Shown here: positions 3,001 through 9,000 of the stretch, in pieces
How positions within the stretch are numbered: position 1 is the stretch's first letter
Layout of the letters: each line of letters begins with the position of its first letter
Origin: Octopus sinensis
Taxonomy: Eukaryota
Assembly (NCBI RefSeq): GCF_006345805.1
Contig: NW_021832124.1
Location: forward strand, 239,034 to 303,033
Direction: 5' to 3'
DNA length: 64,000 bases
Position numbers and translations under genes: made by a program
The notes under the pieces: model-generated
The model's database searches: none
Seen by the model: the letters and a program-made list of their open reading frames with translations, nothing else
Told to the model about the DNA's origin: nothing

Positions 3001-6000
3001 CGATTAGCTGAGGTTGGAGGTCGACTAGTTGTTTCTGCATTTGTGTGACATCGTTGGAAGCACTCTCCAACTTTTCCAAACCCACTTCGTACCGCCTCTT
3101 TGCATTCATGACCAGACTGAACAATCAGACAAACCCCACTCACTTTCTATTTTTGTCCAGCAAAGTCCGAAATGTGTTTATCAGTTCCAAATAGGAGGTT
3201 GGGGTGACGTAGTTGTAACGCTCGAGTTCTCTGAAGTATCTGAGCGACAATGTCTCCGCCGAGGTATGGAATTGGCGGAAGACGTCAATACAGGAGGCCC
3301 TCACGAAATCAGTCATCTCAATGTCCTCCAAAAACCGTGAAGCTACGGCCTCCAGAGCGTCGTTGGGCCAACGCTGGGAGTTATTTGTGGTTGTACCTGA
3401 AACCAGTCGATTGTGCAGCAGTTGATAAGCGAGGGGAACATTCGCAGTCGATTACGGAAACTTTCTCCGATTGGACTCATCGCGAGGACAACATGAAGTT
3501 GGTCCCGACACTTTTGAATAAAAAAGTTAAAAAGAGCGAGTGGAGATCCGTCAGTTTGCTTAGATTTGTCCCTCCGTCTAGTCAAGTCCATCACGACGGA
3601 AACCTGTCTATTTGACGCATTTTCTCACAAATCTCCTGTTTCTCGTCCGCAGGGTATAAATTGGGGACTTCTCCCGAGTTGAGGAAATTGTTCACGTCCT
3701 CCAAAAACGATTCCTGCTTGATCTGAGAGTAATCAACTTGCCCACTCACTTGAGTATCCGCAAATAAGAAAACTCCGGGATTATCCGAGTCGCTGACCTT
3801 TCGGAGAATTCGTTTGAGATCCTCTCGCCACTCAACTGAAGTGTAGCTTTTGGAGATTTCGACTTGGAAGACATCGTAGTCGGCAATGAAGGCCGCCAGT
3901 CTTGTCAGGGACTGCTTTCCAGAGCCCCCAATCCCAACAAGGAGAGCGTGTCCCCTCGGTTGCTGGAGGATGCGGGATATTCGCGAGACGTGTTCCAACG
4001 CGAATCTAAAATGTCAATCACGAGTCGAAAACCGGAAGAGGACCAAATTCATTGGTTTTTTACTCATATTATTGTAGTCCTGGAGGAGACTCTCCACCAC
4101 ACGACGAAGGTTTTCCAAATCAGTCACCTCGACGTATTCTCTGCTCCCTTTAGGCTCGGAGAAGTCGCAGTAAACGAGCGACCGAATGTCGTCCTCGACA
4201 ACTACTCCATCGTGGTCTGCGTCCAGGTGGCAGAAAGTCCCGTTGAATGACTTTTGTAATACTTTTTCGAAATTTTCCTTCACTGTCTCAAACAACCACT
4301 GTTTATCGTCGTTGTCAAACAGTCTGTCGTAGTACACACGGAAGACCTTGAATAAAAATTGCAGAGCAAACCTCGTGCACCCACAGACGGAATATGCACT
4401 CGACATCTTCGTTGGTTCTGGGAGTGGAGAGCATAAGTCCTTGGACTACACGAGAAAAGTCCCGCAGGTTGAACAAATAATGATTCTTTGCGGGTGTCGG
4501 GAGTAAGTAATCTCGAGCCTTCTTGTATATTATGAGAGTAGCCTCGATTATCTTGTCCACCGAGTTGACAATTCCCTGGTCGAACCCTCTACGGGGAATA
4601 TTGCAAATGAGCACTTTGCAAAATGCCACTGGACGATCTGTTTGAAAATAGTGCGGAGAGTGTCGTCTCCGAACTCGTTGATGGCGATTATATTGAAGTG
4701 ACGAGTGAATCGTGGAGTGAGTGGGTTACGTCCACCACCAAGAAATATAGTCCGACAGTCTACCTGGGGGTCCCATTGCGCACACGAATTGAATATCCAC
4801 CACTTTCATTGGAGAACAGTCTTTGAGGTCGTACCAAGTCCCGTGATCGAACCATTGGCGGATTAGTTCTATGGGTGGTTGTGCCCCGTATGTTTCCCTC
4901 ATTGGCATGTTCACGTCGTCTATGAAATATATCTGCCATGTCAGAGCAAGACTTACGGCCTTGTTGCCAACGTAAACTCCCCTCCTTCGTCTGTCTAGTT
5001 TGGACATGACTATGGACTGAGTGAGATTGGACGAGGTTTGTGCAGAAAAGTTGATTATGTTTGGTTTGTACACATTTCTGTCCATTCTATTCAATAGAAG
5101 ATCCTTACAGTCATTCTCGACACAACTCACCGATATGTAAACACTCTTCCCCGTCCCCGTGGGCCCCACTAGAAGGCAGGGACAGCCGTGGGAAATGAGT
5201 AGTTTCAGAATATGCGTGTATCTCACTGTATCGACTGTCTCGATTATTATTTGACTGAATTCAGTGTCCTTTGCTATTTCGCTGGAGCCATCCCATCTTC
5301 CTTCAAAGTTCTCGCCCTATTAGTTTGTTTTAAATAATCAACGTAGCAAAATCGGTAGTCGTATACTGTCCCATCTTTTGGGTAACTCAGTCCGTGTGAA
5401 CGAGGAAGTGCAGGGACCGGATTAATCAATCCTGCCAAATTCGTTAGAGAAGGTGACAATTCTCCCGCCATCATTTCCCGCAAGAACAAGTCGAATTTTG
5501 CACGGGAATTCTCATCTCCGGTAATTCCAATAGACCACGTGACTGCCATAAAGAAGAAGCATTCTGTGTTTGTAATCAATACTCGCTCTTCTATTTCTTC
5601 TGGGGACTGTATTTCTTCACTAAGTTGGCGGGAACGTCTTCGCAAATTTTCTTTATGTTGGCAGCGTTCGTGGAAAATGTCCAATTTTGTTTTGACCAGC
5701 TCCTTTATAGACTTTTTGACGAGTGAAATGCAGGGGTCGACGTATCGCTCGAACAAATTGTTGAGAGTGGATATCACCAACACTTTGTCGGCCAGTGAAT
5801 TGAGCCACGACCTCAGGAGAGGCCGCCATCCCAACGAAGCAGGCTCCATGTAGATCATTCCGCATCGGGAAACCTACAGTCAGACTCGAAGCGAAACAGT
5901 GGCGGGAGATGCTGCTTCCAAGTCCATTGGCTCAAAGATGAGATTTGTAGTATTGGACAGCTGAATAATCTCCCCACTCATCAGACACAGTTTTTTGTTA

Positions 6001-9000
6001 TCGTCGAGGACAGTGTTCATGTTCTCGATCCAAATGGCGTCGACCGGTCCATCAAAAATAAGCCACTTTCTGTCCGGGGTCTACGACGTGTCCCTAAGCT
6101 GGATAACCGTGGACGTGGCAAAGCTCCTGAAATTGACGGCCAAAATTCCATCAGTCCATTCGTGTGAAATTGGGTCGAACTGTCCGTAGAGTTGTCCCAT
6201 GGTGATCGACTTGGGGTTGATGACAGTGTACTGCACTTTGTTTTCCTCAAGCAAGCCCTGTCGTCTACATGGGGGGTATTGTCCCGTATTTCTCCCAGAC
6301 TGGCTGCCAATATGCACTCGACTTGCCGGCCATTGGTTCTCCCACAATCATAAATCCGTGTCGGACAATCATCATTTCGTAAATCTGGAGTGAGCCAGTG
6401 ACATACTTGCTGGATCTTTTGGACAAAGTAGGGTGTGCACTCCAAGTTGGCAATCTTGCACTGATTGACGATTGCTTCATTGAGCACTTGGTAGTCGGGC
6501 GTGGGCAGTTTGATGCCTGGGAAGAGGTCGGAAGTTATCCCATCAAAGAGTGGTAAATCGTGGTTAAGGAACTTGGAAGATTCACATCGACGATGGACCT
6601 GAGCACGATGACATCCTCACTTTCTTGGGGGTATTTCAACTATTCAGTAGTGGAGTGGGATGGACCTTGAGGTTCCCAGCAGCAGTGAGAACAGACTTGA
6701 CTGCCCTCATTCCATAATCGTAGTGGTGTTGCGACGACAGTTGTTCGGAACATAGACGGTAGACGGCCACAATCTTGATTGAGAGGGGGCGGGGGTTGAC
6801 AAATCCACACGAATAGAGGGATATCTCCGCGATCATTGCATAGTCGGGGACCATCATGGCGACCGTCCGGAATAGTGCCTGAGAGTATTATTTGTGAATA
6901 CTTTCAGATTATCAGGCAATTCGGATCTCCCAGCATAGCCCGGGTTCATAGTGATGAAGACGGCACACGTGGGGTCGAGGTTGAGCTGGGTCCCCTCGAA
7001 TTGAAATATGGTCAGATTCTGGCCGATTGCTCTTTGAATGGACATGATTTGCTGAGCCACCACCGACAAGACTTCCAAATCAATCCGATTGAACTCGTCG
7101 AAGCAGGACCACGCACCACAAGAAGCCAATCCCTGAAATTAACAAGACGAGCACAACTTTAAAGAACTTTCCGAGGGCAATGTAGTCAAGACCATCTGAG
7201 CAGTTGAACACTACGCACTGTTTGGCGATTGCCTTTGCTAGATCCTTGACAGTCTCGGTCTTCCCTGCAGGGCCTTCGGGGGCTCCACCCAAGTATAATT
7301 GGAGTGCACCAAAGAGAGTTCTGTAGCACCGATCAGTGAGTGGAGTGATCACCAGTCTCCCACTGTTCCCGAGGTATTCGTATCCATATTTGAGACATGA
7401 GTTGATCATCCGAGTCATCACATTCTCGTCCTTCGAGTAGCATACTTTTTATTACCTCGTAATAGTATCGCAGTTGGCTCAGCCAGTTGAAATCAACTTC
7501 GGACGTGACGTTTTCGTTAATAAGACTGCTCACGACATCCCTGGCGTGGACATCCAGCACAATCAGAGCTTGGAGAGTCGTCCTGTTCTGCATGCTCAAC
7601 TTGCCCCGGACGAGCGAAACAATATCGAGAATCTGTTGATTGCTTTGAGTGAGATATTCGTTCATGGCCTATATTTGTCAGTCCACAATATTACAGTCTC
7701 TCCTCCTCTGATAGCTTCGTGCACCTTACAAGTCCAATAATACATTGAAGTGCACAAAATAGTCTGTCCCGGCCACTCCAACACCCAACGAATTCGATCA
7801 GTCGTCAAATATGAACCAATCGACTCCACCACTGCTTTCTTGACCGACACAATCATTGCCGTCTCCAACTCAAGCAACCACTTTTCCACTTGTCCCTTGG
7901 CTTTAGCTGTAGAAATGGTTTGGTTGAGTTCCACTTTCTCGTTCTCCGAACTGTACATGTGAGTCACGTCCTGAGTATCAGTAAACTCCAGTCGAGCAAT
8001 TCCCTCGAAACACTTTTTGAGGTGGGGCTGGACTCTGCCAATGTTATTATTAGCATTGCCTTGTCGGGTCTTTAGTTTCTGATAGAATTTCCAGTAATTC
8101 GTCGTTCGACAAGAAAAAGAAGCGGGGAAAGTACAACCGTTTTTTTTCCAAGTATTCGTTGAGTCCCTTGAATATCAGTGCCATGCCTACTTTCAAAATT
8201 AGCTCCAAAAGTTCGTTCGACTTTTTTAGTTTGGTGAGCATGTTGTCTATTTTGACAACCGAGAGTGTGCGTCTGTCTGCCATAACTTGCTTCATGACAT
8301 CCCGCCATGTTTTGTCCACGCTCGCAAAACGCCTTCCTTCTTCTGGCATTTGTGCCATAATGTCGGGAGAACTGAAAATGGGCTCCAAGTAAAGCCAAGT
8401 GGACTGGACACTGAGCCACTCGTCGAGAATGTCCTGAATAAGAATGAGGGTGTGTTCCCATTCTCTGAACTATCCAAACAAACAGACTTGATTTGCTGTT
8501 CGAAGGGTTTGATGAAAGGAGACCCCCGCATGGTCTGAGTCTTGACAAGGTGGTCGTCGAGGAGCAGTTGAATGTCGTCGATTGCGGATATAATGTGCGT
8601 ACCCGACTCCCTGTAGGGAATCACCGTGTACTCAATCTGGGAGTAGATTTACCAACCGAGTACCTCCGCCCATTCTCCAATCATCTTCTGAATTGCCTTC
8701 TCGAGGGCATATTCCCTTCCAGCCGCCTCAGATATGAGTTCGAATTGACCAATAAAGTTTTCCACGCCCAACAAAATAACGTATTCGAGATTGAATTCAG
8801 AGTCGTTGGGATCCACAGTGAAACCAATCAACTCGGAGATCTGATTCCAATGGCGATCTCTCATTCCGGGGTTGAAGAATGTCTGAATCATTGGAATGTT
8901 CTCCCGGAAGTCTTCCACGTCTTTTTTGACCTTGAAATGTCACACCTTGGGGATACTTGCATGCTCATCAATTTTGGGGCCGGCGAATCTTCAAACGTCT

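Follow-up and report, generated by a model that had tools for sequence, protein, structure and literature searches.

How does the gene for a conserved ciliary motor come to lack several short pieces of its coding sequence, all within 2.5 kb? The question is raised by a stretch of 64,000 nucleotides (nt), here called the window, from the Octopus sinensis assembly GCF_006345805.1 (contig NW_021832124.1, positions 239,034 to 303,033), which carries on its reverse strand a DNAH7-like axonemal dynein heavy chain gene. A first-pass annotation, made from the sequence alone, described a cluster of gaps confined to positions 4739-7270 and named as options a poor local consensus, a decaying haplotype, soma-specific deletion or, speculatively, a messenger RNA completed with letters that the DNA does not have. 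Comparison with homologues and with contigs from four sequencing runs shows that most of the gaps exist as genomic DNA at majority depth, and that they are transcribed and spliced. Their probable explanation is a set of recently inactivated, still-transcribed dynein copies that decay by deletion and are seen through a mosaic assembly.

Among the sequences of solved structures in the PDB, the gene matches DNAH7, a single-headed inner-arm dynein heavy chain, best (E 1.4e-57), followed by DNAH12 (1e-47) and DNAH3 (6e-45), and the AAA1-AAA4 motifs are conserved; judged by these best hits, it appears to be DNAH7-like. Unlike DNAH7, the version in the window is unable to encode a full motor. The gene was modelled by aligning the window DNA, with introns and frameshifts allowed, to a profile hidden Markov model (HMM) of 59 homologues of 850 amino acids or more, taken from 120 listed matches. 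Its 3' end lies beyond the start of the window, and an unmodelled 5' part reaches about 11.5 kb. The 38 modelled introns are 22-32 nt long (median 25.5), and it is this size, fitting the median of 27 nt given for Dicyema sp. in the available sections of PMC6543705, that suggests a dicyemid label for this DNA. A 32-nt intron of the first model (5342-5311) was replaced by a canonical one of 26 nt, with which the mRNA sum described below agrees, and a GC intron at 9965-9936 is probably spurious. Two further introns have GC donors (8059-8035 and 2527-2503) and one, 4763-4739, has a TG acceptor; those at 8059 and 4763 are spliced in mRNA contigs at the modelled lengths.

Outside 4739-7270 the modelled gene has neither a frameshift nor a stop and shows just differences of 1-2 residues in variable columns. 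All frameshifts and all gaps in conserved motifs fall within this tract. The alignment breaks at 7266 (2 residues), 6576 (1 nt), 6297-6264, 5781 (2 residues), 5293 (7 residues), 4972 (3 residues) and the TG acceptor at 4740-4739; the last is a substitution or a natural non-canonical acceptor and not a deletion. The total shortfall is 100 nt at eight sites from 4972 to 7266 (Table 1). The gaps listed by the annotation are real, and its list was short of three more, at 7261, 5781 and 5683-5686.

Table 1. Position and support of the dynein gene, its gaps and two related deletions; X1, X2, X3 and X5 are the sequencing runs described in the text.
Feature	Position	Strand	Support
DNAH7-like axonemal dynein heavy chain gene, modelled part	2..10206	-	spliced HMM alignment; PDB sequence match
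6-nt deletion, loses TG of AAA1 P-loop GPAG[TG]KT; flanked by 4-nt microhomology	7261..7266	-	6 letters in X2, X3, X5
10-nt exonic frameshift deletion private to X5, absent from window	6678..6687	-	both covering contigs, depth 35.7 + 44.9 of 80.6
1-nt loss, frameshift	6575..6577	-	X1 inserts one letter at depth 192.7 of 192.7
7-nt frameshifting deletion past AAA2 P-loop (SAY..LAA)	6308..6314	-	X1 matches; X3 (+14) and X5 (+13) require it
Intron remnant without donor, about 5 nt gone (fitted)	6265..6286	-	X3/X5 sums; X1 DNA same as window
Probable 6-nt in-frame deletion	5778..5784	-	2-residue HMM gap; remaining +6 of X3's +14
2 nt in place of 47 nt (net -45, 15 residues)	5683..5686	-	joints in X3 (depth 62.7) and X5 (92.7)
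21-nt in-frame deletion, loses invariant tryptophan	5290..5295	-	X3/X5 +30 across 4972 and 5293
9-nt in-frame deletion, three residues after GVY, AAA3	4969..4975	-	homologues; X3/X5 sums
25-nt intron with TG end in place of AG	4739..4763	-	model; X5 without extra insertion; X3 splices 25 nt
338-nt deletion, absent from window, in most X1 DNA and main X2 contig	3903..4240	-	joint depth 178 (X1), 11.9 (X2)

At most of these sites the homologues retain the missing residues. At 4972, 59 of 59 homologues are longer by 3 residues, and the tryptophan removed by the gap at 5293 is likewise present in 59 of 59, which bears out the 9 nt reported missing after GVY at ~4971 and the ~21 nt at ~5292, the latter also seen as the 7-residue gap, and goes against the suggestion that orthologues might naturally lack these in-frame residues. 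The P-loop residues at 7261 are retained in 22 of 23 homologues, the site at 6576 is intact in 36 of 36, and around 6311 there are 37-38 residues in 39 of 41. At 5781 the length varies, 2 of 56 homologues being as short as the window.

Part of 3500-8500 was present in 9 of 24 listed runs, the best of which held 0.68 of the sampled words of the window. Contigs of four of these runs were compared with the window over 3600-8400. Runs X1 and X2 are the DNA and the spliced library of one sample (S1), X3 is spliced mRNA from a second study and X5 is unspliced DNA from a third; X2 and X3 are known to be spliced because their shortfalls exactly equal intron lengths, and X1 and X5 are genomic. Contigs of this kind show presence, not absence, and minor alleles get dropped from them. 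The rows used are the best-supported ones, namely 12 of 77 for indels, 15 of 25 for joints and 40 of 426 for substitutions, and for each piece the inserted and deleted letters were derived from span, record length and gap count.

In sample S1 the gaps are found both in DNA and in RNA. One X1 contig (5932-6632, depth 193) spans the gaps at 6311 and 6284 with 0 mismatches and one inserted letter, at 6576; a second (6991-7388, depth 169) runs across 7261 with 0 gaps, and a third (4739-4992, depth 178) runs across 4972 with 0 gaps, although the short side of that site is just 20 nt. In the spliced library, contig 4547-5268 has 0 insertions, so the 9 nt at 4972 are absent from the RNA as well, and contig 5361-5735 crosses 5685 with 0 gaps and thus carries that deletion, while 5293 and 5781 are bridged by none of the X1 contig rows shown. 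Two X2 contigs are shorter than intact mRNA, by 16 nt and 8 nt; over 5932-7575 the shortfall is 8 nt, which fits the missing 7 at 6311 plus one further letter. A hole in X2 over 3922-4082 was not counted as evidence. Of the options named at the outset, it is the decaying haplotype that agrees with these contigs. Low coverage with gap-free contigs, which would have spoken for a faulty stretch of assembly, is not what was found, as four of the gaps lie on X1 contigs at depth 169-193, a fifth is carried by X2, and X1 is gap-free just at 6576. There the X1 letter gives NLAKFL and the X3 and X5 sums require one added letter; a nucleotide is indeed lost, as had been noted at ~6573, and the A proposed to restore NLPKFL is not the letter found. 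This single loss probably reflects an error of consensus or a rare allele.

The letters that the window lacks are present in other samples. Over 4045-5683, X3 has 153 nt removed, corresponding to six introns, and 30 inserted (9+21); over 5686-6878 it has 119 nt removed (99 in four canonical introns, plus 20 of the intron remnant) and 14 inserted (7+1+6). Insertions in X5 amount to 30 over 4972 and 5293 (9+21), to 13 (7+1+5) and to 6 at 7261, where X3 also inserts 6, and both runs hold 47 letters against the window's 2 at 5683-5686. The 7-nt frameshift claimed at ~6311 is therefore required by both runs, and the remnant without a GT donor, placed at 6265-6284, is what X3 mRNA removes; the donor loss of 5 nt was fitted from the X5 sum, and the 6-nt loss at 5781 was positioned by the HMM, neither being read directly. 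Among the rows shown, X3 and X5 have no insertions in the flanks (3604-4738 and 7271-8397). X3 differs from the window by 1.0-1.9% and X5 by 3-5%, and the runs bear different organism labels. Since these runs carry the letters, relatives are not naturally without the residues, and completion of the RNA is unneeded. X5 has a frameshift of its own at 6678; a contig without it may have been filtered out or dropped.

The confinement of the lesions to 2.5 kb is a property of the assembly, because the X1 reads show lesions outside the tract. At 3903-4240 about a quarter of the X1 depth is undeleted, in a contig of depth 42.6 with 0 mismatches, and here the window follows the minor path. Further X1 deletions were found at 4274-4540, 4281 (16 nt), 5190 (1 nt), 5294-5561, 6627-6790, 6933 (6 nt), 7208 (9 nt), 7464-7506 and 8002-8079, so that the lesions absent from the window range from 1 to 338 nt and lie inside the tract and on both sides of it; the acceptor G at 4589 is gone at a depth of 151 of 151. 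The joints 3902-4241, 4273-4541 and 7463-7507 are common to X1 and X2, with identical filler letters at two of them. X1 also contains pieces diverged by ~7% with 16-nt gaps, and has 250 contigs on the 4.8 kb, compared with 45 in X5. The gaps cluster significantly when the whole modelled gene is considered (p about 2e-4) but weakly within the read-tested 4.8 kb (p 0.03); the reported confinement thus holds in the window and fails in the X1 reads. The window appears to be a mosaic, with broken paths in its middle and unbroken ones in the flanks. Some candidates were set aside: X1 joints near 6032-6071 recur in long contigs of X3 or X5 and were taken as paralogous dyneins, as were gaps at 8114-8140 and 8267, and a reading of the depth steps (about 45, 90, 140 and 185) as ploidy was dropped, as contig depths mix shared words. 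Over 3600-8400 the differences between X1 and the window are biased towards A/T (C>T 42, G>A 34 and G>T 18, against A>G 14 and T>C 13), a bias that is not seen in X5; the X1 counts include paralogue contigs.

The deletions themselves have a signature. At the six multi-base deletions with known ends, the microhomologies are 4, 6, 6, 2, 2 and 0 nt long, that is, at least 4 nt in three of six (chance 0.019 each, p 1e-4) and at least 2 nt in five of six, a count that omits one 1-nt gap, a 4-nt gap in what is probably a paralogue, and five joints that contain filler or whose filler is unknown and that scored 0-1. This fits microhomology-mediated end joining. Such joining, by Pol theta, is tied to genome shrinkage in parasites and in Oikopleura in the available sections of PMC6635534; the likeness extends to deletions ranging from a few bases to some hundreds, short flanking repeats and a compact genome, but those sections do not mention dicyemids, and templated insertions, which were looked for in the fillers, are not shown here. 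At 5293-5562 the filler fits an inverted hexamer close by but can be read just as well as the final codons of the 21 nt that are missing, and the other two fillers resemble diverged continuation. Between the window and X3 mRNA there are 62 differences in 4275 nt (1.3% within the tract, 1.7% in the flanks), and 21 of the 24 substitutions shown are synonymous, position 5312 having been reassigned by hand to the exon. As the divergence is mostly synonymous, the gene was under selection until recently and its inactivation is recent. Seven multi-base deletions have accumulated without an excess of substitutions.

On the explanation that we prefer, sample S1 would be a mixture of heritable dynein copies, most of them recently inactivated. 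A first null mutation would release a copy from selection; each double-strand break mended by microhomology-mediated end joining would then cost it 5-340 nt; the broken copies would retain promoter and introns and continue to be transcribed; and the assembler would have taken broken paths at 4.97-7.27 kb and unbroken ones in the flanks, which would produce the apparent confinement. Other populations hold an intact version (X3 and, apart from 6678, X5), and S1 probably has one too, at minority level. The copies may be alleles of different clonal lineages, to which we lean slightly, or recent duplicates; these are inseparable because the window itself has near-identical duplicates and the contigs are unphased. 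One such pair is an NADP-IDH gene in two 99%-identical copies (45010-47545 and 61460-64000, 16.45 kb apart), either a true duplicate or uncollapsed haplotypes. Both copies are intact and, unlike the dynein gene, model cleanly, having six canonical introns and being unbroken from position 1 to 381 of 404 (HMM from 7 of 80 loci); the second is without its first 7 positions, as the window ends there. The other is an intronless Ets-domain gene in two copies that are 94% alike (12300-13400 and 14800-15900). The second Ets copy has lost 1 nt from a run of C in its open reading frame and lacks 28 upstream nt between two ATTTT repeats, another deletion of the microhomology type. Mixed lineages within one sample are plausible: as background for the taxon only, the available sections of PMC12953835 describe several dicyemid types in most hosts, and those of PMC6736024, one genome paper, give a heterozygosity of 1.24%.

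Decaying gene copies are an already known kind of thing. A polymorphic pseudogene, for example, is a segregating loss-of-function haplotype with one founder mutation, and the dynein gene resembles it in that disrupted and intact versions coexist among close relatives, the broken version is transcribed and divergence is mostly synonymous. It differs in having many nested lesions, nearly all of them deletions, in a conserved ciliary motor and at majority depth, and the unusual part is this deletion load without a substitution excess. In the literature on dicyemids, no report of deletion-bearing gene copies, of a dicyemid dynein heavy chain or of NHEJ in Dicyema was found in a search that left subscription papers mostly outside. 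Several observations weigh against recently inactivated copies as the explanation. Pseudogenes typically show ~0.1 deletion per substitution, so eight gaps without an excess of substitutions are more than ordinary pseudogene decay and are not fully explained by it. If the ciliary motor is needed, the X5 frameshift is difficult to understand, given its apparently full depth. The unphased contigs show no fully intact S1 haplotype, the depths have no single-copy reference, and divergence of ~7% together with 16-nt gaps is seen even in some of the contigs near depth 45. The window may derive from X1, X1 and X2 are a single sample, and the counts of microhomology and of synonymous changes come from the best-supported rows.

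Alternatively, mutation itself may be dominated by deletion, with microhomology joining producing deletions about as frequently as substitutions arise, in an asexual germ lineage or in amplified somatic DNA. Under such a process whole populations would carry, at majority frequency, swarms of conserved-gene copies that are transcribed and riddled with deletions, and X1 and X5 would have acquired their lesions independently. We regard this as possible but rather unlikely.

Less likely still is a developmental rearrangement, in which the soma amplifies the locus and repairs it by microhomology, so that deleted copies dominate whole-animal DNA and germ cells stay intact. Somatic rearrangement, chromatin elimination and amplification are on record for dicyemids (available sections of PMC6543705, citing Noto 2003 and Awata 2006), and the many deletions with few substitutions, the undeleted quarter of X1 depth at 3903-4240 and the deletion in a second population (X5, 6678) all agree with it. 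As in programmed DNA elimination, whether the excision of internal eliminated sequences in ciliates or that described for dicyemids in PMC6543705, short internal stretches are gone from part of the DNA, some of them between direct repeats; the cuts in dynein, however, break reading frames rather than restoring them. Programmed cuts should also recur, but the same junctions were not found across samples: X3 mRNA and X5 DNA are unbroken at each of the window gaps that they span, and the X5 deletion lies elsewhere, which disfavours the fixed-site form of the annotation's soma-specific option. Random cuts, on the other hand, should each be rare, and these are majority paths at depth 169-193. The X1 paths moreover differ synonymously and include copies diverged by ~7%, which points to old lineages.

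An error of assembly consensus, or a library artefact of amplification or template switching, seems improbable as a general account. The 1-nt loss at 6576, which is absent from the X1 contig, agrees with the poor local consensus that had been proposed, and so does the incomplete share of window words in the best run, but four of the multi-base gaps are found on unspliced contigs of high depth, and a second library of that sample, a spliced one, shares gaps and joints with them, including identical filler at two joints. Gene completion can be practically dismissed, for the one observation in its favour, that X2 RNA has 6 nt at 7261 that none of the compared X1 contigs shows, is explained by a minor allele dropped from contigs, while unspliced X5 DNA has the 7261 letters and is full length at 4972, 5293, 6311, 6284 and 5685, and the same-sample RNA is mostly not completed, as the letters are missing from it at 4972, at 5685 and, judging from the sums, at 6311.

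The remainder of the window contains several other features. At 16144-17649 there is a Tc1/mariner-type element that has terminal inverted repeats and whose transposase (HTH_Tnp_Tc3_2, DDE_3) is frameshifted, and at 26661-29685 a 3-kb stretch between 84-nt inverted repeats, with a weak helicase (AAA_11) match at 28695-29504. At 48670-50180 and 54180-61510 there are satellite arrays whose units measure 95 nt and about 168 nt, with fragments of a PIF1 helicase and of DDE_1 between the arrays. On the reverse strand, 37791-39254 is an open frame of 488 codons without apparent introns, in an otherwise intron-dense genome, with a weak match to MMM1 (E 2e-4).

The most exotic reading, completion of the RNA, falls away, and the gaps in the dynein gene are biology and not noise. 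Where gene loss is called from an assembly such as this one, the call can stem from a mosaic in which intact and broken copies are mixed. Should a deletion-dominated process act genome-wide, genome reduction and gene loss would be caught here in progress, and somatic rearrangement in dicyemids would become testable at the level of single bases. A high deletion load, if it proves general, would offer a direct handle on the shrinkage of these tiny genomes and on whether small deletions are part of the reported somatic rearrangement.

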